From positions 1 to 35,273 of the IMG/VR virus record IMGVR_UViG_3300045988_059116: a stretch of DNA of 35,273 nt; one strand, 5' to 3'. Position 1 is the stretch's first letter; each line of letters starts with the position of its first letter. Origin of the DNA: a virus. The notes below the pieces were generated by a model. That model was given only the letters and a program-made list of their open reading frames with translations, ran no database searches and was not told the origin of the DNA. Position numbers and translations under genes: made by a program. Positions 3,441 through 17,535 of the stretch are shown here, piece by piece.

Positions 3441-5543
3441 TTAAACCTCCCCACACAAGACCATTTCACCATTAATCGACTTCCAAACGCAGCGTCTGGC
3501 AACACCGCCAGAATGGATGACAACATAGTAATTCTGACTAACTAAGTTCAACGAATTATTCCCGAAAACAGTCAGATTCCCACCAGTGTCCGTATATACC
3601 TGCGATGTGCCGCCTGTATTGGAACTGATCGTAAACGTTCCATTTTCTTTGAAATAAATTCCGCATTTTTGATTGCCGTTAGAATCATAATTTGTAATGT
3701 TTAAGAATGTATTTCCGCCATCACATCCCATTACAAAAGAATTAGCTGCATTTTTTGTTCCTGGTACATAGTTCCATAAATTTATATCACTTTTTGATCC
3801 TGCTGTTGAAAGTTGGATCGAATTGACCTCTTTTCCGTCGTCTTTGTTGTCTAAACGGATCGCGTTCCAATCGCCCTGGGAAATCATGTCGATCGCATTA
3901 GCATCTTGATCCTTCGTTGATCTATTCGTCAAATAAAACAGCGAATTATTCGCACTGCGATACATTAATATTTGATTTGCGAGTGTATTTGACGCTCCGC
4001 GATTTTCTGCTCTAAACTCTCCGGATGTATTAAAGTTGATCTTTCCCGATCCTGTGAACTGAATCCCGGCATTGTCTGGCGTAGTATCGGCAAGTACATG
4101 TGTTCCGTCGGGATCACCGAACACGATGGACGGGCCGATGATCTGCGCGTCGTAGGCCTGAAGGCCTTCATTGTCCATCTGAATGACCAGGTTGCCCTCT
4201 GCATCGTACACGTGGCAGACGCCGTCGCCATTTCGGACGCCGCCCAATGTCAGGGTACCGCCCTTGATGACATTGGCCTGCATGGTGCCGGTGGTAATGA
4301 AATCGGCCACGATGCTGCCATCCTGCGTGATGGCTGTCTGGTATGGTCCGTTATAGCCGTTTGAACTGTACCCCAGGCCGCCCTGGTTCCAGCGCCAGAC
4401 CTTGGTGGCTGTGGACATATCCGGGGTGTCCATGATTAGCAGCTCATAAGGCTGTCCGGCGGCGTTTTGGTGAAGGATGACGTATCCGCCATTTGTGCCT
4501 GCGATCCAGCCCGTGGCATTGTTGATGGCATTGTTCATCGTTGCCCAGAAAGCACTGTTTGGATTTTTGATCTCGTTTCTGATCGACTGGACTTGATTCT
4601 GGATCTTCGGCGCGGTCGCCGACAGAGTAACCATGTTCTTTTCAGGGTAGAAAGGATACCGCCAGTACTCTACAACCTGATAAAGGACGCTGATTCCCTT
4701 TACATCGTCGATCAGCCGAATGACAGAAAACAGACTAAAGTCCTGAAATCCGTACAGTTCCGGATTGGTGGCCGCCAGATCGTAAACGGTACATTCATAC
4801 GACCGGGAAGGCACGCCAGCCTCGTTTACAGACGTCTGTGCGTCCTCCAGCAGACTCGCCGGGTCAGTATAGCGATCATCGCTCCAGTACGCGCAGATGA
4901 TCTTGTCGGTGTAGGTGTTACAGTCCACATAGGGCTTTCCGTCGTTAATATCTGCGAAGGTCATGCCATCCTTGCCATAGGCATACAAACGCGTATAGAA
5001 ACCCGAGCTCTTGCCCTTGTAGTTGACCTCCGTCATGTTCAGGTCCCTGGTAGCAAATGCCCCCAGGGACTGGAACTGGCTGAGCCGGTAGGCTGTGACC
5101 CGTTTCCTTTTGACGTCGTATCGGAAGACAACCCCGAACACGTTGGCAGCCTCCGTGATGACCTCCAGCGGCGTGTAGTTGCCCTCGATAGTGCGCCGGA
5201 TCGTACTCAGGCTGGAGTCGACAAACTGCCAGTTGTCAGGCAGAACACCGTCGACAGTCTCTGTTAGCGTTGCGCTATTGTTACTGTAATTGACAAGCAT
5301 GACAGCCTTCAGCTCGTCCAGATCCAACTGGCACTTGACCTTAGCCGTGTCCTTGCCTGCGTCAATCGCCTTGATCAGGTACGGCTGTTCATAGAAGACC
5401 ACCGCTTCTTCGACGACGGCACTGTAGTTCTCGTCGTAGATAGACAGGTTGAAGATCAGCTCATCCAACCCACTGGCCATCTCTTTGATGTAAAAGTCAT
5501 CTGTGTTTAATACCAGACTGCCAAGTCGCAGCAACTCGGCCAC
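3441..5543 (-). CDS. Tail-associated lysin-like / baseplate hub protein (Tal; phage minor structural protein, prophage-tail N-terminal domain)
   Basis: 700-aa ORF directly after Dit. The N-terminus (LVLNTDDFYIKEMASGLDELIFNLSIYDENY) is typical of siphovirus Tal/minor structural proteins. The C-terminal third is Asn/Gly/Ser/Thr-rich and looks beta-helical. The true start may be the TTG at 5534, which is 8 nt after GGAGG. Confidence 0.75.
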   Translation of the reverse strand: MAELLRLGSLVLNTDDFYIKEMASGLDELIFNLSIYDENYSAVVEEAVVFYEQPYLIKAIDAGKDTAKVKCQLDLDELKAVMLVNYSNNSATLTETVDGVLPDNWQFVDSSLSTIRRTIEGNYTPLEVITEAANVFGVVFRYDVKRKRVTAYRLSQFQSLGAFATRDLNMTEVNYKGKSSGFYTRLYAYGKDGMTFADINDGKPYVDCNTYTDKIICAYWSDDRYTDPASLLEDAQTSVNEAGVPSRSYECTVYDLAATNPELYGFQDFSLFSVIRLIDDVKGISVLYQVVEYWRYPFYPEKNMVTLSATAPKIQNQVQSIRNEIKNPNSAFWATMNNAINNATGWIAGTNGGYVILHQNAAGQPYELLIMDTPDMSTATKVWRWNQGGLGYSSNGYNGPYQTAITQDGSIVADFITTGTMQANVIKGGTLTLGGVRNGDGVCHVYDAEGNLVIQMDNEGLQAYDAQIIGPSIVFGDPDGTHVLADTTPDNAGIQFTGSGKINFNTSGEFRAENRGASNTLANQILMYRSANNSLFYLTNRSTKDQDANAIDMISQGDWNAIRLDNKDDGKEVNSIQLSTAGSKSDINLWNYVPGTKNAANSFVMGCDGGNTFLNITNYDSNGNQKCGIYFKENGTFTISSNTGGTSQVYTDTGGNLTVFGNNSLNLVSQNYYVVIHSGGVARRCVWKSINGEMVLCGEV

Positions 5544-8861: not shown

Positions 8862-9256
8862 CGGTTAAGAAAGTGGCGGCGACGCGTCCTTTTTGCAGCT
8901 TCCTTGCTGCTAGCCAAGATCTTCGGGTACAGAACTTCAAGGATAAACGGCATGACGTCCATCACCATTGCCAGCATGTCTTCCTCATAAAAGTGCATCA
9001 GGCTCTGGGTATTGTTTACGCCCAGAACGGTTTCCAACATTCTCAGAGTCGCGTCCCCCAGTTCTTCGGCCAACCGTACGTCATTTGGACTCATTTTCGC
9101 CTTTTTCTGCAGGTCTCTGACTTCTACCAGTTCGACGGATGCCTTTCTGGCAATCACCATTGGGTTGATGATCACGTTGATGACCAACTCGTTTCCCTGG
9201 CTGTCTGTAAACCTCGCTTGCTCCTTGATGGTTTCTGTCTTTTTTACCTCATACAT
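8858..9256 (-). CDS. Tail assembly chaperone (Gp14-like)
   Basis: The ATG at 9256 (MYEVKKTETI...) lies 8 nt after AGGAGG. The ORF-track start at 9304 lies inside the terminator hairpin upstream. The gene sits between the major tail protein and the tape measure. Confidence 0.55.
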   Translation of the reverse strand: MYEVKKTETIKEQARFTDSQGNELVINVIINPMVIARKASVELVEVRDLQKKAKMSPNDVRLAEELGDATLRMLETVLGVNNTQSLMHFYEEDMLAMVMDVMPFILEVLYPKILASSKEAAKRTRRRHFLNR

Positions 9257-9277
9257 AAGTCGTACCTCCTTCAATTC

Positions 9278-9302
9278 AAAAAAAGAGCCCCAACCGGGGC
9301 TC
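9278..9302 (-). terminator. Rho-independent terminator/attenuator after the major tail gene
   Basis: On the minus strand the sequence reads GAGCCCC-GGTT-GGGGCTC followed by T7, starting 2 nt after the major tail stop codon. Confidence 0.7.
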
Positions 9303-9304
9303 AA

Positions 9305-10045
9305 TTATTCTTTTGTTGTGACTGTAGTCTTTCCAGTAGCAACAACGACGCTCGTCGCTGTATTAACCATAGCCACGACGACATTGTCACCGGATGGGAT
9401 TGTATAGTCTCCAGGCACAAAATCGTTCCAGCCGGTCAGCACCTGGCCAACGGTGGCTTCTGGCGCTATTTTGCCGTAAGACCAAACGTATTTACAGCCC
9501 GCGGACGCTTCCGCAGGCGTAACGCTCAGCGCAGTATCACCAGTCGCAGTACCTGCAACACTCTGAACAGTCAGCGTCGTTACTGGCGTGACGGTAGACA
9601 GAGTTGGCTTTCCATTGAATCGCACTTCAAAAGAAATCGGAGAGATGTCAGTAGTTGCGCCGCCGATGTCTGTGACATTTGCGATCGTAACAGGACAGGT
9701 GATCTGCTGAATCGTTCCATCTGCCTGTCCCTGTGACAGTCTAAAGTTAGTATTTCGTTCAGCCATCAGCCCAAATTTGCGGGCTCCGTTGAAAATCCAG
9801 TCCTGAGCTGGGTCGCCGATGATCCGACGACCAGTACAAGTATATGCCGGTGCTTGCCCGGTGACGTAGTTAGTTGCGTAGCCCTTCTGAGCAAAGAAAA
9901 AGTATTGCTGTACAACTTCGTTCAGCGCCTCGGCGATGTTTTCGACTCCTTCGCCAAACGTAGCCCACGTGCGGCTTTCGCCGTTCGGCGTGATGTCAAG
10001 TTCTGCCTGGATCGCATGCGCGACCTGTGCAAAGTTATCAGGCAT
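9305..10045 (-). CDS. Major tail protein with C-terminal beta-sandwich (Ig/FN3-like) decoration domain
   Basis: 246-aa ORF with GAGGAG 9 nt before the ATG. The N-terminal ~145 aa resemble TP901-1/phi13-type major tail proteins. The C-terminal ~95 aa are homologous to the C-terminus of the major capsid protein in this window. Confidence 0.8.
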   Translation of the reverse strand: MPDNFAQVAHAIQAELDITPNGESRTWATFGEGVENIAEALNEVVQQYFFFAQKGYATNYVTGQAPAYTCTGRRIIGDPAQDWIFNGARKFGLMAERNTNFRLSQGQADGTIQQITCPVTIANVTDIGGATTDISPISFEVRFNGKPTLSTVTPVTTLTVQSVAGTATGDTALSVTPAEASAGCKYVWSYGKIAPEATVGQVLTGWNDFVPGDYTIPSGDNVVVAMVNTATSVVVATGKTTVTTKE

Positions 10046-10436
10046 TTGTTTTCACTCCTCTCATGTAAAAAAGCACCCGGAGGCTGGATCCATAAATCCA
10101 ATTCCGGTTTTCTTCTCTTCCCAGCAACTGCGGAGCTGCTGAGGTTGTTATTGAGTATATCTGCCAGTCGTCCGAAAATGGGAGTACCTTGGAAGTGGTT
10201 AGGACCAGGTGAACTCGGTCCATCTCTTCCACCAGCTTCTGCTGGTCAGCGCTTTTCCCGTTAAACACGATTGGCAGCGTGTAGTTGGCATTCAGTGTCC
10301 GAAATGTCTCGATCGGTGCGCCTCCTGCATAGCCTACCGCGTAGCCTTCCTCTGGCGGCATTGATCCGACCACGACTGGCATGCTGACCAGCTGCTGAAC
10401 CATTGTCCGAACGACATTCATGACTTCATTAATCAT
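10038..10436 (-). CDS. Neck / tail-terminator-type protein
   Basis: 132-aa ORF directly upstream of the major tail gene, overlapping its neighbours. The call is positional. Confidence 0.5.
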   Translation of the reverse strand: MINEVMNVVRTMVQQLVSMPVVVGSMPPEEGYAVGYAGGAPIETFRTLNANYTLPIVFNGKSADQQKLVEEMDRVHLVLTTSKVLPFSDDWQIYSITTSAAPQLLGREENRNWIYGSSLRVLFYMRGVKTNA

Positions 10437-11597: not shown

Positions 11598-12794
11598 CTA
11601 GGAACCAACGACGGCAGCAACAGCCGACGCAGCGACTGCTGCGTTGTTTTTCGTTTTATTGACAAGAGCGACGACGATGTATTGGGAATCAGCTGTGGTG
11701 ATTGCCGATCCGTTCTGAATCGGTGTCCAGCCTGACGTCAAACTTTCTCCATAAGCCGGCAGCGGTGTAGCAGCCGCCTGGCTCTTAGCCACATACTGCA
11801 TACCAAACGGCGCAGCCGGCAGGCCGTTGATCACGGTCAGTGTCGAGGACGATCCGGCCGAAGTGGAGAACTGAACAGAACCCAACGACGGAAGCGCCGC
11901 CAGGTTAGCCAGAATGCCAGTTTTGCGGTTGTTCAGGACAAAAACATCATAGTAGTAGCGTTCGTAATAAAGCCACTTGCCCTTGCTCTGCGCTGTCGGG
12001 GCGCTCATCATCGACACATCATAGACAACCGGCGCAGCGATGGCCAGCGGGTCGTACATAACCATATTGACCTGACTCGCACCAGACGCAGCGACCCAGC
12101 CCTGCGTGAAGTCATAGGTGCTCATCATGATGTCACTCGGAACCTCAGCGATCAGAACACCATCCAGCTTGCCAACATTGCGGTCAATATTCCGGATCCC
12201 CGTGTCCGCTTCAACAAAACGAGTGATACCGGCGGCCTCTTTCAGCAGCTTGTAGGTACTCGGTGTCATTTTTACGCGGATTCGATCTCGCGGTACGCGA
12301 TTGTCAACCATGTAGGCCAGATAGGTATCCCAAGTTTCTAAAATGTTATCTTTGGTCATAGAAGTATTGTCCACCGTACCAAAGCTGGAGGCTGCTTCGT
12401 AGAGTTGAGCAACCGCATAAGCATCCTGTTCAGGCATTTTTTGAAACTGATTGAAGGTCTGCGTAATGTTCGCAATCGTAACGATCGCATCCTCTCTCAT
12501 ATCCATCGGATCCACCAAAGTGTCCCATTCGCGATCCATCCGCATCTTCAGGATCTGCTGATCTGTGTTGAAATTGCGGGTAAATTTGCCGTCAAGATTG
12601 TCACGATCAACGGAACGTGCGCCAGACACGGTCATTCCCTGCACCGCAATGGCCTTGCCCCCCAGCGGCTTGTAGGTTGCACTATTCGGGGATCCGTACA
12701 GATCCGAAAAATAAGACCAATACGGATACGCATTGGCCATGGCTTTGCTATATTCTGTAGTGTAATTCAAAGTCTGTTGATTAAATTCAGGCAT
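11598..12794 (-). CDS. Major capsid protein with C-terminal decoration domain
   Basis: 398-aa ORF after the scaffold gene. The C-terminal ~95 aa (…LTSGWTPIQNGSAITTADSQYIVVALVN…) align with the major tail protein C-terminus (…LTGWNDFVPGDYTIPSGDNVVVAMVN…). Confidence 0.8.
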   Translation of the reverse strand: MPEFNQQTLNYTTEYSKAMANAYPYWSYFSDLYGSPNSATYKPLGGKAIAVQGMTVSGARSVDRDNLDGKFTRNFNTDQQILKMRMDREWDTLVDPMDMREDAIVTIANITQTFNQFQKMPEQDAYAVAQLYEAASSFGTVDNTSMTKDNILETWDTYLAYMVDNRVPRDRIRVKMTPSTYKLLKEAAGITRFVEADTGIRNIDRNVGKLDGVLIAEVPSDIMMSTYDFTQGWVAASGASQVNMVMYDPLAIAAPVVYDVSMMSAPTAQSKGKWLYYERYYYDVFVLNNRKTGILANLAALPSLGSVQFSTSAGSSSTLTVINGLPAAPFGMQYVAKSQAAATPLPAYGESLTSGWTPIQNGSAITTADSQYIVVALVNKTKNNAAVAASAVAAVVGS

Positions 12795-12797
12795 TTC

Positions 12798-13283
12798 TTA
12801 GTCTCCTTTCTTGCCAAAGCCCCAGACGCTCTCGAAGGTGTTCTTCTGCGTGCCCTTCGGCATGCCGCCTGCGACGTCTGCGCCGAACCTCGGCGCGACT
12901 TTTCCCGGATCTTCCTCCGGGACGAAGTACTCTTCGTAGTCCTTAGCAATCTTCGCCATCTGTTCTTTAACGGGTTCCGCTTTTTCATCGCGATTAATCA
13001 GCTTGTAAACAGCTTCGCGGAACTTCGGCTTGACGCCGGCATAGTCTTCGGAACCCAGCGCGCGCAGCATGTCGCGTTCGCCGACTACCTTCAGGTACTC
13101 TTCATTAGTTGACAGATCAACGTCTGGCTTGTGGTCCTTCAGTGCCTTGTCCACCTCATCCTGCAGTGATGAACGTGGGATATAGTCAGCCGCCAGTGCC
13201 CGGCCAGATTCTGTCATGATGTAGTCGATCTGATCGGCAGTCAGTCCCTTGCCTTCCAGATCCTTTCGTTTAAAAAGTGCCAT
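12798..13283 (-). CDS. Capsid scaffolding protein (GP20-like)
   Basis: 161-aa charged helical ORF immediately upstream of the major capsid gene. The N-terminus (FKRKDLEGKGLTADQIDYIM) is typical of Firmicutes phage scaffolds. Confidence 0.7.
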   Translation of the reverse strand: MALFKRKDLEGKGLTADQIDYIMTESGRALAADYIPRSSLQDEVDKALKDHKPDVDLSTNEEYLKVVGERDMLRALGSEDYAGVKPKFREAVYKLINRDEKAEPVKEQMAKIAKDYEEYFVPEEDPGKVAPRFGADVAGGMPKGTQKNTFESVWGFGKKGD

Positions 13284-13398
13284 TTCTTTTTTCCGTCCTT
13301 TCTTTACCGCCCCCAGACGTGGGGCGACACGGGCCTTTACCGTCCATCCGCTGGACGCGTTGCCGCTTAACCCTGCGACGGGAGATGCGGATCACCTC
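13284..13398 (-). other. GC-rich structured intergenic element upstream of the scaffold gene
   Basis: 115 nt without an ORF. On the minus strand it contains the hairpins CGTCCA-gcgga-TGGACG and CGCCCCA-cgtc-TGGGGCG, plus CCC-gtcgca-GGG. No U-tract follows them. Confidence 0.35.
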
Positions 13399-13842
13399 CT
13401 AATCGTCGTCATCGTGTCTTTCGCCGCCGCTGCCCAGCGCACCAGCCAGCTTGTAGTCGGCTTCCTTGTTCAGCCAGTACTCGCACTCTTGCAGCCTGTT
13501 GGCCACGCTTGCCGGGACGATGCCCTCTGCGCTCTGCATCAGCCCCGCAGTGCTGCGGAAGGCTTCGCGGGTAATGGAATAGGTTTCTTTTCTTTCTCGC
13601 TTCACAGCAGGCAAAACATCGCGCTGAAACAGCAGAATAGCGTCCGCGATGGTTGGTTCAGTAAACCCCAGCGCGATCCCAGCCTCGATCAGGTCGTCGG
13701 TGAGCTCAGCCAGCTTCTCCTGTACATCATCCAGGTACCCGTGAACCTCGAACCATCCCTCACCGCTTACGCCGTGATGAAGAACGGCCAGATTGCACTG
13801 CAGGACCTTCAGGAAGGCCAGCATCCGTTGAAACTCGTTCAC
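13399..13842 (-). CDS. dps: Dps-like (ferritin-like) protein
   Basis: 147-aa ORF with a GTG start 11 nt after AGGAGG. The segment LHHGVSGEGWFEVHGYLDDVQEKLAELTDDLIEAGIALG matches the Dps ferroxidase pattern H-x12-H-x3-D-x10-D-x3-E (H22, H34, D38, D49, E53). The C-terminus is an acidic tail, GSGGERHDDDD. Confidence 0.7.
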   Translation of the reverse strand: MNEFQRMLAFLKVLQCNLAVLHHGVSGEGWFEVHGYLDDVQEKLAELTDDLIEAGIALGFTEPTIADAILLFQRDVLPAVKRERKETYSITREAFRSTAGLMQSAEGIVPASVANRLQECEYWLNKEADYKLAGALGSGGERHDDDD

Positions 13843-13969
13843 CCTCTTTTCTTCCTCCTTTCTCCCGTCTTACCTGGAGATTTGTGTACTCTTCAGGCGT
13901 AAAAAAAAGGCCGCACTTTTCGCAGCGCACGCCTTCGCGGGTTCCTATAAATTCATGTTGACAGCTCAA
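13760..13969 (-). CDS. Possible small zinc-ribbon-like protein (doubtful)
   Basis: A TTG start lies 7 nt after AGGAGG. The N-terminus SCQHEFIGTREGVRCEKCG has a CxH...CxxC pattern. The last 83 nt overlap the Dps-like gene in another frame and encode low-complexity sequence. Confidence 0.3.
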   Translation of the reverse strand: MSCQHEFIGTREGVRCEKCGLFFTPEEYTNLQVRREKGGRKEGERVSTDAGLPEGPAVQSGRSSSRRKR

Positions 13970-13991: not shown

Positions 13992-14017
13992 AAAAAAGCC
14001 GCCTATTGCAGGTGGCT
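13992..14017 (-). terminator. Possible internal terminator/attenuator between the MuF block and the Dps-like block
   Basis: On the minus strand the sequence reads AGCCACC-tgcaata-GGCGGCT (one internal mismatch) followed by T6. Confidence 0.45.
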
Positions 14018-14040: not shown

Positions 14041-14277
14041 TCAATACCACATGACCACACGCTCAGTACGTTTATCTCCAGCTTTTGCCATACGTACCAA
14101 CTCGCGCCGTGCATGACTTGCAGACATCCCATACTCATAGCCTGGCGCTCTATCAATGTGTTTCACTTCTTCGGTTAAAAGATCAATAACCAAAAAACCA
14201 GGATCGGTCGAATCCTCCGGGTAATAATAAGCGGACGCTTCACTTTCGCTTATCTTTATTTGCTTTAAGGTTACCAT
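14041..14277 (-). CDS. Small conserved hypothetical protein overlapping the MuF 3' end
   Basis: The ORF-track frame runs to 14301. The likely start is MVTLKQIKISE, downstream of AAGGAGG. The protein ends in VMWY, and its 5' end overlaps the MuF-like gene by ~38 nt. Confidence 0.55.
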   Translation of the reverse strand: MVTLKQIKISESEASAYYYPEDSTDPGFLVIDLLTEEVKHIDRAPGYEYGMSASHARRELVRMAKAGDKRTERVVMWY

Positions 14278-15925
14278 AGTACGCATCCGCCTCCTTTTCA
14301 TAACTATATTTACGGCTTGTCACGATATGAGCCTCTCGTTGACTCATCCCCTGATCCATCAATTCTTTTTCCATGATTTCATGCTTGATCAAGGTCAAAT
14401 CATGTGGCTCTGGTTTACCTTCCGTCAGTCGTTGCCACGACTGCGCTATCGCACAGTCAGGTGCGAACCTTTCAGCTTTTTCGCCACCCAGATCATGCTC
14501 GTCAAAAAACAAATACTGCTTTATTGCCCGTATCTGTTTATGCGTGTTCCCAGTGGTTTTTGCAACCTTAGCCACATCCGTTTTCATACTTCTCACAAGC
14601 CCATAATAACGCTCCGCATGTTGCTGTGCTTCTTTACTGTCGATATCAACTATTCGCGCTCCGCTAATTGCCTTCAGAGCATCATCACTCTGCTTTTTTA
14701 TGCGAGCTGCCTGTGCTATCACATCTTTAGTATAGCCTTCCACCTGCGTCCTATCAAGTCTCTTTTTGCGCCCAGCAGCTTTGGCGAACTGATTATAGAC
14801 TGCCTGTGCTTCTCTTACTTTCTTACTCTGCGCCGCAAACTCATCATCTAGTCCCGCCGCCTTGTAAGCCAGAGCCTTCCGCTTGGCTTCTCGGACGTCT
14901 CTTTCGAGCGCTCTCATTTTCTGCAGCTCGGCGTACTCCTTGTTGTTGGCTTCTTTGTCTTGAATCTGTTTATCCTGTGGAAAGCTCACACCTGGAATGA
15001 CCGGCAGGGGTCTATGCCCACAGTTGATTCCGAATAAACCAGCCGGCTTTCCGTAACTTGTCGAGCTGATCGGCTTGTAGCTGTGCCGCTTGCCGTCACC
15101 GTCTGTGAAGGTGCCACTTTCACTGCTCCAGGTGAAAAACTTGCCCTGATACGGATAGCACAAAGGCCGTGCCCCGGAATGACTGCTGACCTGGAAAATG
15201 TCGCTGTGATATTCCTTCTGTCTAGCTTTCACTGATTCGATCATCGTGTTGTGGGACGTCGTCCGGACGACCATGCCCATGTAGGCCTCCGGCGTCCAGT
15301 GCCGCCCTGCACGGTCAACAAAGCCGTAGATGCCTTTTTCAGACAGCTGCGTGATCGCTTTTTTCATGACCTGCTGCCGGGTTTCGCTGCCGATGACTTG
15401 GCCCATCGCTGCGTCGTTAACGACGTTGATCGCTTCTTCAACCTGCCCAGAGTCCAGCTCATATTCCGCCCAGCTCACAACGTTGTTGATCGCCGTCAAA
15501 TAGGCTGCTTGTGAGCTCTCCAGCATGGTCGTGTTGGTCAGGTTTGCATCATCCAACGCCTGCTGGGAAAGCTGTTCAAGTACTTGCTTGGTATAGGTTT
15601 CCGGTGCCTGCTCGATGGCTCCGTTTGTGATTGCTTCTTCTATCAATTTGTCAATGTCGGCCAACGCTTCTTTCGATGCGTCTGACAAGGCCTCCTTGAT
15701 CACATTTGGAAGACTCTTCAGCGTCGCGTTGATGATCTTGGCGTTTTCTTCTGTCAACTTGCCCATCTCCTGTAGCTTGTTCAGCTCCCAATCGGCCGTG
15801 CGAATAGCGTTGCCGCTGCCCAAGTGTTTTGCTATATTCTCAATCAGCCGGTCCACACATTCCGCATAGGTCCTTTCGACGGGCTCAGCCAACATGAATT
15901 GCAGCAGTTTTGAAGCTGTGGCCAC
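14240..15925 (-). CDS. Head morphogenesis / minor capsid protein (MuF / SPP1 gp7 / minor-capsid-2 type) with ~150-aa C-terminal extension
   Basis: 561-aa ORF directly after the portal gene. The core (…VVRTTSHNTMIESV…SSHSGARPLCYPYQGKFF…GINCGHRP) is typical of this family. It is followed by a coiled-coil region and then an extra domain (ISGARIVDIDSKEAQQHAERYYG…FAPDCAIAQSWQRL…LIKHEIMEKELM…EAHIVTSRKYSY). Confidence 0.8.
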   Translation of the reverse strand: MATASKLLQFMLAEPVERTYAECVDRLIENIAKHLGSGNAIRTADWELNKLQEMGKLTEENAKIINATLKSLPNVIKEALSDASKEALADIDKLIEEAITNGAIEQAPETYTKQVLEQLSQQALDDANLTNTTMLESSQAAYLTAINNVVSWAEYELDSGQVEEAINVVNDAAMGQVIGSETRQQVMKKAITQLSEKGIYGFVDRAGRHWTPEAYMGMVVRTTSHNTMIESVKARQKEYHSDIFQVSSHSGARPLCYPYQGKFFTWSSESGTFTDGDGKRHSYKPISSTSYGKPAGLFGINCGHRPLPVIPGVSFPQDKQIQDKEANNKEYAELQKMRALERDVREAKRKALAYKAAGLDDEFAAQSKKVREAQAVYNQFAKAAGRKKRLDRTQVEGYTKDVIAQAARIKKQSDDALKAISGARIVDIDSKEAQQHAERYYGLVRSMKTDVAKVAKTTGNTHKQIRAIKQYLFFDEHDLGGEKAERFAPDCAIAQSWQRLTEGKPEPHDLTLIKHEIMEKELMDQGMSQREAHIVTSRKYSYEKEADAYYGNLKANKDKRK

Positions 15926-17535
15926 TATTCAGCCCCGCCCATCTCCAAAACGTCCAAGAAGTTGCCGGAGACGCTCTTTTCATCGCCGATCTCCTTCAGT
16001 TCTCGTGCCGCTTCGTCTTCTGTATAACCCAGCTTGTCAACAAGAAAACGCTTTTTGCTCATCAAACCACTGTTGACCAGGGTGATCCCTTCATTGATGT
16101 TCGTCTGGCGGTCTTGTAGGATTGAATCGTCAAAGACAACTTTGCTCTCCCAGCCCTGATTGGCAAGATTCTGGATCTTATACCCTTCCCAACTCAGCCC
16201 GTACAGGCCGGCCACTTCGATAATGGTGTCAACCACCTGATTGATGGCCAGTTTGACCTGTAATTGATGGCTCTTAATGGTCTTATAGGTCTTACTATTC
16301 TCGCTGATGACCTCAGTGGCCGTCTTCAGTCCCTGTGCTCGGTCAAAGGTAAACGTTCCAGCGCTGAACCCAACCTGCAGGCAAAGGATAGACAGAAAGG
16401 CGTTAATAGCCGCGACGTGTTCTTCAACGCGCAATTCGACGCTGTTGTCCTGGATCTTCAGATCATCCGGGTTGTCCGTATGCAACGCTTCGTAGGTCTC
16501 GTCCGATGCATCGAAGTACCGCACCATCTCCTGCGTATGTGGATTAACTACCGTCCGGATACACTGCGCCGGGACGATGATCCGTTTCTTGCCCAGTCTA
16601 AACTCACGAATAAATGAATCGTAGCAAATATCCAGCGCCTTCAGCGTACTCAGTGCATTGGCATAAATCGACACACCCAACGGGCTGTTGTCGTCGATGT
16701 TGTTAGCCACTGCCGTGCGGTAGTAAGCAAACAGGCTTGCGCTGATGCCCTGTACTGACGTTTCCTCATTCAGAAACGGATAGATCTGTTCCAGCGGATA
16801 GCGGAACCCCAGAATGTCCTGCGGTTCCACATTGCCCCGGTTCTCCATGATCTCTGTCCGGTACAGCTCATTTGTAATCCAGTAAGTCAGCCCGTCCCAC
16901 TTATGCCACTCCAACCGGGTGTAGTAGTAGCCGTCCTTTGCCTGGCGGCTGATGAACACGCCATCCGTAACTCTGGCGTTGTCCCATCCAGTCGGGACAA
17001 ACTGATCGGCCATGCAGAACCCTAACCGAATCTGGCCCGAATTGGGGATCGGGTTGCCGTTGCTGTCCCTTTTCTCGTCATACCAGACTTTGATTGCCCC
17101 GCCTCCCAGCGCCAGGGATTGCTCTATATGCTCTTGCATCTTCTGCCAGAAGTTATTTCTCGCCAGGACGTCATGCACAAAGTCATTCAGCGGTTGGTTC
17201 TCGCCGTTTCCCTGGGTTACATGCACCTCGCACTGTTCCGACCAGATCAGCCCCGCCAGTTCAGCACAGACGGCCTTTGCGGTGTCCATCCGCTCAATGT
17301 CTCGCTCATGCCTCGGTTCAGCAATCGTCGGCGCAGCGATTCGGTGCCAGGGCTTATAATAGCCTTTATAGATGTACTTCCAGACGAAGATCCCGAAGTA
17401 ATAGAACTGATTGAAGGCGGGTACGCCGCCGATCTCAAAAACATCTTTGAATTCCTTTGACAAGCCTGTGTAGGCCGCTGTTTTCTGCATCCAGTTTCTC
17501 ACCTTCTTTTTTATCTTTTCAAACAAAAATTTCAC
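15925..17535 (-). CDS. Portal protein (SPP1 gp6-like)
   Basis: 536-aa ORF immediately after terL, with size and position typical of a portal. The N-terminus (…GVPAFNQFYYFGIFVWKYIYKGYYKPWH) resembles Firmicutes siphovirus portals. The start may be the TTG a few codons inside the ORF. Confidence 0.85.
   Translation of the reverse strand: MKFLFEKIKKKVRNWMQKTAAYTGLSKEFKDVFEIGGVPAFNQFYYFGIFVWKYIYKGYYKPWHRIAAPTIAEPRHERDIERMDTAKAVCAELAGLIWSEQCEVHVTQGNGENQPLNDFVHDVLARNNFWQKMQEHIEQSLALGGGAIKVWYDEKRDSNGNPIPNSGQIRLGFCMADQFVPTGWDNARVTDGVFISRQAKDGYYYTRLEWHKWDGLTYWITNELYRTEIMENRGNVEPQDILGFRYPLEQIYPFLNEETSVQGISASLFAYYRTAVANNIDDNSPLGVSIYANALSTLKALDICYDSFIREFRLGKKRIIVPAQCIRTVVNPHTQEMVRYFDASDETYEALHTDNPDDLKIQDNSVELRVEEHVAAINAFLSILCLQVGFSAGTFTFDRAQGLKTATEVISENSKTYKTIKSHQLQVKLAINQVVDTIIEVAGLYGLSWEGYKIQNLANQGWESKVVFDDSILQDRQTNINEGITLVNSGLMSKKRFLVDKLGYTEDEAARELKEIGDEKSVSGNFLDVLEMGGAE

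Follow-up and report, generated by a model that had tools for sequence, protein, structure and literature searches.

A divergent Dps-family mini-ferritin encoded in the head operon of phages of strict gut anaerobes

Gene content of the locus

The window, i.e. the whole stretch of 35,273 nt that was analysed (positions 1 to 35,273 of the IMG/VR virus record IMGVR_UViG_3300045988_059116), is a prophage of a siphophage lineage that carries a Dps-like gene. The hosts of this lineage are strict gut anaerobes (Holdemania, Clostridia relatives; Firmicutes), and a protein that is 100% identical to the Dps-like ORF is labelled 'hypothetical protein [Holdemania]'. Related prophages are carried by Clostridium leptum DSM 753 and Hydrogeniiclostridium mannosilyticum. 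Profile annotation of the window yields a complete head module, in which terminase, portal, MuF, scaffold and adaptors are all found; the terminase of this prophage is disrupted. The features discussed here are located on the minus strand and are listed from upstream to downstream:

15925..17535, minus strand: portal protein, 536 aa (PHROG 533, E 2.9e-125)
14240..15925, minus strand: MuF-like minor capsid protein 2, 561 aa (PF06152, E 1e-77; PHROG 581, E 4.5e-94)
13992..14017, minus strand: imperfect hairpin followed by T6, a possible weak terminator, between an 86-aa ORF and the zinc-ribbon ORF
13760..13969, minus strand: small CxH…CxxC zinc-ribbon-like ORF with a basic C-terminal region; likely TTG start at 13969 after the Shine-Dalgarno sequence AAAGGAGGA
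13854..13858, minus strand: GGAGG Shine-Dalgarno sequence, 11 nt before the GTG start, read from the sequence
13399..13842, minus strand: Dps-like mini-ferritin gene, 147 aa, GTG start, stop codon at 13399-13401
13684..13779, minus strand: codons H22 to E53, putative Dps-type inter-subunit ferroxidase motif in helices A and B, from alignments to Dps ligands
13402..13437, minus strand: flexible linker and acidic C-terminal tail, residues 136-147 (ALGSGGERHDDDD), from AlphaFold and alignments
13284..13398, minus strand: intergenic spacer of 115 nt from the Dps-like stop to the scaffold start, holding the scaffold Shine-Dalgarno sequence
12798..13283, minus strand: head scaffolding protein, 161 aa (PHROG 194, E 5.9e-5; weak PF06810; conserved synteny)
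11598..12794, minus strand: major capsid protein, 398 aa (PHROG 422, E 5.9e-82)

The initial annotation had described a 147-aa ORF flanked by a MuF-like gene and by the scaffold and capsid genes, and had assigned a strong Shine-Dalgarno sequence of its own to this ORF. Both statements are borne out, the former by ORF and profile annotation and the latter by the GGAGG at 13854-13858. The directly downstream neighbor of the Dps-like gene is the scaffold gene. On the upstream side, a conserved zinc-ribbon ORF had been missed. In the window, this ORF shares 83 nt with the beginning of the Dps-like gene; an overlap of the zinc-ribbon stop with the Dps-like start is seen in 43 of 44 distinct loci and mostly measures 1, 4 or 8 nt. 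The encoded protein has a pI of 9.8 and finds no match in Pfam or PHROG. Given this overlap, the unit is a gene pair and not a lone ORF. The upstream neighbor of the pair is the MuF-like gene.

Less remains of the RNA elements that had been reported on either side of the gene. The upstream hairpin with T6 does exist at 13992-14017, but it is imperfect and its stability is no better than that of shuffled sequences (z = -0.68). A strong upstream terminator was rejected on this value and on a consensus terminator scan, which misses the hairpin and whose only matches fall within the zinc-ribbon coding sequence. Likewise, the spacer between the Dps-like and scaffold genes does measure 115 nt, but the structure attributed to it is not found: its fold gives z = -0.83, and 36 of 200 shuffles fold as well or better. 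An Rfam search of the window, spacer included, returned no family, and with both results a structured spacer or other RNA element was ruled out. In relatives the spacer ranges from about 120 to about 650 nt and can contain additional small ORFs.

Fold and ferroxidase site

The template-free AlphaFold model of the Dps-like protein (pLDDT 92.6) predicts helices at residues 3-24, 30-57, 65-71 (BC), 84-108 and 111-135. These are arranged as a four-helix bundle with a short BC helix in a long B-C loop, as is characteristic of Dps (AlphaFold, Foldseek). In a Foldseek search against the PDB, the top 50 matches are all Dps, Dpr or NAP (TM 0.71-0.85), the best of them with a TM of 0.81-0.85 and an rmsd of 1.6-2.0 Å over ~140 columns. 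The ferritin-like bundle on which the earlier proposal depended is thereby recovered in the model, with a structure search that returns Dps structures. Judged from the prediction, it can be stated with high confidence that the protein has a Dps fold.

The identity to cellular Dps amounts to about 15-23%, and the sequence likeness is restricted to helices A and B. A phmmer search against the PDB identifies D. radiodurans Dps2 (E 3e-4), while PHROG 3636, 'DNA binding protein', matches the N-terminal half only (E 2.4e-7). The Pfam model PF00210 (Ferritin-like) gives no match at E ≤ 1, and the NCBIfam Dps equivalogs score below their thresholds (NF006975 with 14.7 bits against a cut-off of 114, NF041388 with 15.3 against 170), so by those models the protein is a remote relative and a non-member. 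A tblastn search against 50,697 GenBank phage records returned no match. The Dps-like family collected here counts 164 members, 132 of which served as full-domain representatives for the analysis of residue conservation. The ORF thus encodes a genuine mini-ferritin of the Dps family, albeit a highly divergent one from a clade that is specific to phages.

All five residues expected at a Dps ferroxidase site are present (H22, H34, D38, D49 and E53, with spacings 12/4/11/4). In HMMER and hhalign alignments they fall on the ferroxidase ligands of D. radiodurans Dps2, H. pylori NAP and Listeria/E. coli Dps. The initial annotation had compared them to the arrangement in Listeria Dps, which we take to be H31/H43/D58/E62 with D47 nearby, and at the level of sequence register this comparison is upheld by the alignments. 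Conservation points in the same direction, as H22, H34 and D49 are each kept in 131 and E53 in all of the 132 full-domain representatives, D38 being variable; by register, the putative ligands can be placed on the Dps site. The segment IEAGIALGFTEP, also highlighted before, aligns with 'AER..lGG.P' of Dps at the end of helix B. It is probable that the metal site is functional.

Other hallmarks of Dps are altered. An acidic D-x-T-x-D pore motif as in classical Dps is not evident in the sequence by position; the region found there, located by position alone, reads G-I-V-P-A-S-V-A-N-(K/R)-L (VPASVANKL in the window), without an Asp cluster. P110 is invariant in this region, and A111 and N115 are nearly so. 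Helix A begins at residue 3, and the Lys/Arg-rich DNA-contacting tail of the E. coli Dps type is absent from both the N- and the C-terminus. The C-terminus is acidic instead and the net charge of the subunit is ~ -12, which makes the 'DNA binding protein' label of the PHROG family unlikely for the protein alone.

When compared to bacterial Dps, Dpr and HP-NAP (Listeria innocua Dps 1QGH, D. radiodurans Dps2 2C2J, S. suis Dpr 1UMN), the phage protein shares the subunit fold including the BC helix, the H…H…D…D…E ligand register, the 'lGG.P' end of helix B, and a similar size and acidity. The Trp beside the first His, however, is a His or Arg in the phage protein, and a flexible linker and an acidic C-terminus take the place of the basic tail. 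The phage gene furthermore resides in a head operon, coupled to the zinc-ribbon ORF.

Conservation of the slot and its occupants

The order portal, MuF, zinc-ribbon ORF, Dps-like gene, scaffold, capsid can be observed in 58 of 70 informative related viral loci, which were found via the capsid protein and span capsid identities of 50-98%. The same slot is occupied in 34/34 loci that were found through the Dps-like protein itself. In addition, the Dps-like protein diverges in parallel with portal, capsid, MuF and scaffold (Spearman 0.60-0.72). From the conserved slot, the co-divergence and the low identity to cellular Dps, it follows that the gene has long been part of the head module and is inherited along with it. 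The initial annotation had regarded it as a cassette inserted in an operon of canonical layout; this is contradicted by the synteny survey as well as by the co-divergence, and a recent insertion was ruled out. The gene is missing in 12 of the 70 relatives, four of which lack both the Dps-like protein and the short tail-bearing protein described below; head assembly thus does not depend on it.

More distant homologues occur in other settings, which were taken from the contigs that encode them. In an unrelated, Mu-type head module (locus L113), the homologue is located between Mu_F and a Peptidase_S78 prohead protease. Another protein (P0111) is a fusion in which a Peptidase_S77 prohead core protease is joined to a Dps-like domain with an acidic tail, and 'prohead protease' entries of 333-763 aa in BFVD match the Dps-like model. 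Against the GenBank phage records, P0111 was matched in its protease part alone and a distant family member (P0078) not at all; neither the fusion proteins nor the distant subfamily could be traced to a viral contig. Part of the family is encoded away from structural modules (L111).

The C-terminal Gly/Ser stretch and acidic tail noted earlier are both there, as a linker and a DDDD end. Residues 140-147 have a pLDDT below 50 and are predicted to be disordered. Within the close clade, the (E/D)(Y/x)DDD end is kept while the length of the linker varies. Acidic tails were found in 69 of 911 ORFs in the surveyed loci, nearly all of them in this slot or at portal C-termini. Distant Dps-like members in head modules are devoid of the tail, which is therefore not needed everywhere.

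In some relatives, a non-homologous helical-hairpin protein replaces the Dps-like protein in the same slot. It carries the same kind of acidic tail in 119 of 120 family members, and the two proteins are mutually exclusive among the sampled loci. The possibility that these short proteins are truncated Dps (helices C-D) was considered and rejected, as hhalign gives a probability of 1-3.5% against the Dps-like family and the AlphaFold model is a plain helical hairpin. Slot and tail alone are common to both.

Dps-like proteins have been annotated in other phages as well, namely in L. plantarum myophages such as Semele and in 'Gratiaviridae' and other gut phages (PHROG 3636). Both groups share a phage-encoded Dps fold, and Semele A0A2K9VDB4 and LP65 Orf120 are among the BFVD matches of the present protein. 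The hosts of those phages are anaerobic or aerotolerant, similar to the present clade. The L. plantarum phage genes are located near DNA-metabolism genes (PMC6669764), whereas the present clade sits between MuF and scaffold and adds the acidic tail and the zinc-ribbon partner. The earlier statement that no characterized phage Dps is known from a head module agrees with the searchable literature, where such genes are found at annotation level only and outside head modules (PMC6669764, PMC8008677). They have been read as helpers against oxidative stress (PMC6669764, PMC8008677), and iron and peroxide stress is relevant to strict gut anaerobes (PMC8008677).

Possible roles at the phage head

Four independent lines (synteny, prohead-protease fusions, coupling to the zinc-ribbon ORF and the shared tail) suggest that the clade is tied to capsid assembly and that the mini-ferritin works at or inside the phage head. 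Position in a late operon is in itself insufficient to prove a structural role. A precedent for a ferritin fold in purified virions is gp217 of the Vi01-like phage Sajous1, as identified by mass spectrometry (PMC10892097).

The reading that we tentatively prefer is that of a late-made ferroxidase cage that is coupled to head assembly and possibly encapsidated. By analogy with solved Dps structures, the di-iron ferroxidase site would be built across a two-fold interface, with H22 and H34 contributed by one subunit and D49 and E53 by the other, and the subunits would assemble into a 12-mer cage. This cage may oxidize Fe(II) with H2O2 or O2 and store the mineral, whereby Fenton damage to DNA would be reduced. 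The gene would be translationally coupled to the small, basic-tailed zinc-ribbon protein; with this coupling and its place in a late head operon, synthesis of the protein would coincide in time and place with procapsid assembly and DNA packaging. The acidic tail may act as a docking element, and candidates for its target are the zinc-ribbon partner with its basic tail, a basic patch on the scaffold and the inside of the procapsid. Once docked, the cage would be anchored to the head during assembly and may become encapsidated. A physical association with procapsid or virion is conceivable, though we hold it with some doubt. A role as ejected protein, which had been raised before, is unlikely since a 9-nm 12-mer is too big for the tail channel.

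It is also possible, if rather doubtful, that the protein is a soluble, protective Dps of the cytoplasm, similar to an auxiliary metabolic gene product, that never enters procapsid or virion. Late expression would then coincide with an abundance of naked phage DNA, the protein would sequester Fe(II) and consume H2O2 in an oxygen-sensitive host, and the acidic tail would merely adjust solubility or iron capture. The Dps fold with its conserved ligands and the strictly anaerobic hosts are in line with this explanation, as are the homologues outside structural modules and the dispensability of the gene in 12/70 relatives; it is also the reading given for other phage Dps-like genes (PMC8008677, PMC6669764). 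What it leaves unexplained is the slot between MuF and scaffold or protease in two unrelated types of head module, the fusions to prohead core proteases, the coupling to a basic zinc-ribbon protein, and the replacement by a non-homologous protein with the same tail. Several of these observations would suit an assembly factor, in which the Dps fold serves as oligomerization hub of an accessory scaffold or core component and the metal site is mainly structural: a 12-mer or smaller oligomer and the zinc-ribbon partner would jointly help to nucleate the procapsid, set its size or organize the DNA. The gene is directly upstream of the scaffold, the domain in the fusions is C-terminal to the prohead protease (the usual place of a scaffold domain), a simple helical hairpin with the same tail can take its place, and its rate of divergence is near that of scaffold and MuF. 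Nonetheless, the near-absolute conservation of four ligands in the 132 representatives favors catalysis or metal binding over mere oligomerization, and relatives without either slot protein keep complete head modules, which renders an assembly factor quite unlikely.

The net charge of ~ -12, the acidic tail and the missing basic DNA-binding tail could also be read as signs of an acidic DNA mimic or anti-defence protein, packaged or late-made for the next infection, for which the Dps fold would be a charge carrier; the occupants of the slot are indeed small, acidic, helical proteins. This would leave the conserved ferroxidase ligands unexplained, however, and classical Dps is equally acidic. 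As the searches run (PADLOC and anti-defence libraries were not among them) gave no likeness to anti-restriction families and a 12-mer could not pass through the tail, such a function is very improbable. Even harder to credit is a recent moron cassette that was captured from a host Dps gene and brought its own terminator and structured spacer. The separate Shine-Dalgarno sequence, the intergenic gaps on either side, the weak hairpin with T6 upstream and the variable content of the MuF-scaffold interval among relatives would agree with it. Against it stand a slot kept in 58/70 relatives with capsid identities down to about 50%, the co-divergence with the head genes, an identity of ~20% to cellular Dps in a small family from phage contexts, and a spacer and hairpin that are no more structured than shuffles.

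The preferred reading, a cage coupled to head assembly, can be extended to a more specific and, in our estimate, unlikely form. The phage head would be a natural, encapsulin-like container for a mini-ferritin, with the acidic tail as capsid-targeting tag of alternative cargoes and the ferroxidase cage placed in the procapsid. The tag would be common to the Dps-like cage and the helical-hairpin protein, and the basic zinc-ribbon partner may aid loading. Once encapsidated, the cage would shield a dense, unrepairable genome from iron and peroxide damage during the extracellular, oxygen-exposed stage of a phage whose hosts are strict anaerobes. The idea of a packaged, encapsulin-like cargo, already raised in the initial annotation, would be backed indirectly by the prohead-protease fusions, by the equivalent position in an unrelated head module and by the tail in common with a non-homologous slot protein.

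Encapsulins hold ferritin-like cargo (Flp, IMEF) that is equipped with C-terminal targeting peptides. Both systems encode a ferritin-superfamily protein beside the gene for an HK97-fold shell. In both, this protein ends in a short, conserved peptide that is preceded by a flexible linker and is common to non-homologous proteins from the same genomic slot. In contrast to an encapsulin operon, a full tailed-phage head module with terminase, portal, MuF and scaffold is present here, so that the locus does not classify as an encapsulin. The phage tail is also purely acidic, unlike the hydrophobic or Gly-rich targeting peptides of encapsulins, and a scaffold gene separates the Dps-like and capsid genes.

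Phage Dps-like genes have so far been annotated and read as generic stress helpers, with none of them characterized, and the present clade is invisible to Pfam and NCBIfam and labelled 'hypothetical protein'. If encapsidated, the protein would form a functional bridge between tailed-phage capsids and the iron compartments of encapsulins, and would provide a new way of protecting packaged genomes as well as a new targeting tag for loading cargo into phage capsids. If cytoplasmic, it would still point to iron and peroxide management at packaging time as a trait under selection in phages of gut anaerobes.

Targeting of proteins to the procapsid is known from the T4 internal proteins, the T4 gp21 protease, the C-terminal targeting region of the HK97 protease and SaPI1 CpmB, the last of which has the C-terminal capsid-binding motif of the scaffold. 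The logic of a short terminal peptide that sends a passenger into the procapsid would be shared with these systems. Distant Dps-like homologues are even fused to a T4-type (S77) prohead protease, whereas the present phage has neither a protease nor an N-terminal targeting sequence of the T4 type. The tail of the Dps-like protein also differs from the C-terminus of the local scaffold (…FESVWGFGKKGD).

The Dps-like gene and its slot in the head operon

PHROG and Pfam scans of the neighboring genes confirmed that the minus strand carries a head-morphogenesis module, with the order large terminase, portal, MuF, 86-aa ORF, small ORF, Dps-like gene, scaffold, capsid and head-tail adaptors.

Features of the head module in the window
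17541-18644, minus, large terminase (PHROG/Pfam scans)
15925-17535, minus, portal (PHROG/Pfam scans)
14240-15925, minus, MuF-like minor capsid protein 2 (PF06152, E 1e-77)
14041-14301, minus, 86-aa ORF, 3' of MuF in module order and overlapping the MuF 3' end by 62 nt
13760-13969, minus, zinc-ribbon ORF (our placement, TTG start after a AAAGGAGGA SD)
13399-13842, minus, Dps-like ORF, 147 aa, GTG start
12798-13283, minus, scaffold (PHROG/Pfam scans)
11598-12794, minus, major capsid protein (PHROG/Pfam scans)

A GGAGG lies 11 nt 5' of the Dps-like GTG. A protein 100% identical to the product is recorded as 'hypothetical protein [Holdemania]' and occurs on 121 contigs. The 86-aa ORF has no family match; it is 99-100% kept in the close relatives L001 and L002, and its counterpart in locus L076 is 77 aa long, ending …TRTERLVMWY.

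The position of the Dps-like gene in the head operon is stable. Scanning IMG/VR with the Dps-like alignment yielded 34 loci, and in every one of them the genes run portal, MuF, small ORF, Dps-like, scaffold, capsid. Starting from the capsid protein, a search free of bias towards Dps-bearing loci gave 80 loci, 70 of them with both MuF and capsid; the Dps-like gene occupies the same slot in 58 of these 70, down to a capsid identity of ~52% and over a Dps identity of 36-97%. Over 41 distinct identity profiles, from loci that are phylogenetically non-independent, the divergence of Dps follows that of the portal (Spearman 0.72), MuF (0.66), capsid protein (0.64) and scaffold (0.60). This constancy of slot and the shared divergence contradict the initial annotation, in which the gene was said to look like an inserted cassette. 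The structured spacer proposed with it (13284-13398) folds no better than shuffled sequence (z = -0.83), and the hairpin plus T6 upstream of the gene is weak (z = -0.68). No Rfam family was matched in the window.

No Pfam or PHROG family matches the small ORF that directly precedes the Dps-like gene. This ORF encodes a conserved, zinc-ribbon-like C-x-H…C-x-x-C-G motif and a basic C-terminal region (e.g. …KPKRQTRKKVKTDE; an AT-hook-like PKRGRPKK in the Dps-less relatives L097 and L098). Its stop overlaps the Dps-like start in 43 of 44 distinct loci, by 1, 4 or 8 nt in 36 of the 43 and by 83 nt in the window, a pattern that indicates translational coupling. Inside this ORF (13910-13929, minus), a GC-rich hairpin is followed by eight T (GCTGCGAAAAGTGCGGC CTTTTTTTT). 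It falls in the CEKCGLFF codons, ~70 nt 5' of the Dps start, has a terminator-like score and is also a slippery homopolymer.

A one-genome-per-species scan located related prophages in Mediterraneibacter, Clostridium leptum DSM 753, Subdoligranulum, Hydrogeniiclostridium, Oscillospiraceae and other Clostridia, all of them strict gut anaerobes. A large serine recombinase is encoded in the window (31997-33355, plus). It has Resolvase, Recombinase and Zn_ribbon_recom domains and is probably the integrase of the prophage, in keeping with an integrated state.

Fold and putative ferroxidase site

Curated sequence models fail on the Dps-like protein. PF00210 gave no match at E ≤ 1 in Pfam, the Dps equivalogs of NCBIfam reach ~15 bits where their cut-offs require 114-170, and PHROG 3636 ('DNA binding protein') matches residues 2-64 only (E 2.4e-7). 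A PDB sequence search returned weak matches to Dps2 from D. radiodurans (E 3e-4) and NAP from H. pylori (E 2e-3), limited to helices A and B. The Dps-type fold claimed initially was settled by predicted structure instead. A template-free AlphaFold2 model, built from an 18-homologue alignment, has a mean pLDDT of 92.6 and helices at 3-24, 30-57, 65-71 (short), 84-108 and 111-135; this modeled topology is that of Dps, with the BC helix present. The top 50 Foldseek matches in the PDB are all Dps, Dpr or NAP (TM-scores 0.71-0.85), the best with an rmsd of 1.6-2.0 Å over ~140 columns.

The putative ligands H22, H34, D38, D49 and E53 are all present as claimed and align with those of Dps2 and NAP (HMMER, hhalign). 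The register also agrees with H31/H43/D47/D58/E62 of Listeria Dps, as had been proposed, and with H51/H63/D67/D78/E82 of E. coli Dps. The PDB matches to 1QGH and 1DPS span the same region.

A profile run against 1.84 billion representative proteins found only 164 family members (E ≤ 1e-3). The family is a small clade apart from cellular Dps, and its members come from phage contexts. Among 132 whole-domain representatives, H22, H34 and D49 are each retained in 131 and E53 in all 132, while D38 is variable. Since these four residues are kept at ~30-50% overall identity, the alignment argues for selection on the putative metal site. Classical Dps carries a Trp beside the first His, where the Dps-like protein has H or R, and a D-x-T-x-D acidic pore motif, of which none is visible by sequence here. 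In contrast to classical Dps, the protein also lacks a basic tail; its net charge is ~-12, and direct DNA binding is therefore unlikely.

Acidic tail, protease fusions and possible role

Members of the close clade have a linker after helix D that varies in both length and sequence, and then a conserved (E/D)(Y/x)DDD; this C-terminal end is disordered in the AlphaFold prediction. More distant members (132-140 aa) end directly after helix D. The same type of tail is found on an alternative occupant of the slot: in 8 of 12 Dps-less capsid-related loci, a 60-80-aa ORF sits there, likewise overlapping the zinc-ribbon ORF, with DDE, DDDE or EEDE at its C-terminus.

Examples of the short protein
L068, 6196-6378
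L071, 5306-5488
L086, 6140-6385
L095, 3645-3881
L100, 6101-6343

For the short protein (60-82 aa), prediction gives a helical hairpin whose ends and linker are disordered; the C-terminus is acidic. Its family comprises at least 176 clusters, and 119 of the 120 members with the best scores have the tail. No sampled locus carries both the short protein and the Dps-like gene. A truncated Dps was considered, but the hhalign probability is only 1-3.5%; these are therefore two unrelated proteins with a common slot, upstream partner and tail type. Elsewhere in the sampled loci such tails are rare: with an acidic tail defined as ≥3 D/E among the last four residues, 69 of 911 plus-strand ORFs have one, all being Dps-like or short proteins, some relatives' portals, or MuF (two loci). 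The portal extension, the sole other recurrent acidic tail in the sampled head modules, is ~20 aa long (…EDDEEAAEDES) and found in many relatives (L012 2397-4073, L051 1675-3351); the window portal has none and ends …LEMGGAE. The Dps-less L097 has a small serine recombinase/resolvase-like ORF (4716-5315, 199 aa, start MATYGYARVSSRDQ…) between the zinc-ribbon ORF and scaffold, so the MuF-scaffold interval accepts insertions.

Family members also occur in unrelated phages. On a 49-kb contig with a Mu-type portal (L113), P0190 is flanked by Mu_F and a Peptidase_S78 prohead protease. In this head module, a 387-aa Zeta_toxin-domain protein (8918-10081) is encoded directly after the protease, two genes past the Dps-like gene. 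In P0111 (536 aa), a Peptidase_S77 (T4 gp21-type) prohead core protease is fused to a Dps-like domain with intact ligands and to a long acidic C-terminal region; the protease part matches gp21 homologues from many phages of the T4-like and jumbo kinds. Independently, 'prohead protease' entries of 333, 432 and 763 aa in a viral structure library match the Dps-like model. Other fusions carry long acidic low-complexity arms.

By analogy with the solved Dps family, a 12-mer cage with ferroxidase chemistry can be inferred. The reading ranked first, tentative as a whole, is a head-associated ferroxidase: the protein would be made during head assembly, as its operon position suggests, docked by its acidic tail and perhaps encapsidated. 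A purely cytoplasmic protective Dps is ranked second and is somewhat more doubtful. It is kept alive by the accessory distribution of the gene and by members in non-structural contexts. A universal head role is opposed by one member on a 98-kb contig, whose neighbors are RNase H, guanylate kinase and AAA genes, and by three that directly precede a tube-like gene and the portal, outside the head block. However, the protease fusions, the second head-module context and the tail common to an unrelated slot occupant would be difficult to account for if the protein had no physical contact with the procapsid. A pure scaffold role leaves the ligand conservation unexplained, and a role as an ejected protein is unlikely for a predicted cage of 9 nm.

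The Dps protein class and its phage copies are already known. In five L. plantarum myophages, Dps-like genes are 'close to the DNA metabolism genes' and a role in peroxide tolerance was suggested (PMC6669764). For those in 'Gratiaviridae' and 36 further genomes of gut phages, the proposed effect is a higher oxidative tolerance of the anaerobic hosts (PMC8008677). In purified Vi01-like virions, mass spectrometry detected gp217, a ferritin-fold protein (PMC10892097). The literature searched yielded no description of Dps in a head module or fused to a prohead protease, and no paper describing Pfam DUF5856. The head-module clade, its tail, partner and protease fusions appear to be undescribed.

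Terminase region of the window

The large terminase is disrupted at 18609-18805 (minus). The opening reading frame is 25 codons long (18805-18731) and closes with TAA; the segment with Walker A (TPRSGKTT) resumes in another frame from 18728. Compared to the 97%-identical L001, the window has 5 extra bases just before Walker A (…GGCACTTAACTCC… in the window, …GGAACTCC… in L001). The prophage may be packaging-defective, or the disruption may be an assembly error.

Further features of the terminase region
18801-19346, minus, free-standing HNH/NUMOD4/NUMOD1 homing-endonuclease gene (PF13392, E 4e-11)
19321-19851, small terminase (GP3_package)

The small and large terminase genes, direct neighbors in L001 without an intervening endonuclease, are separated in the window by the homing-endonuclease gene.
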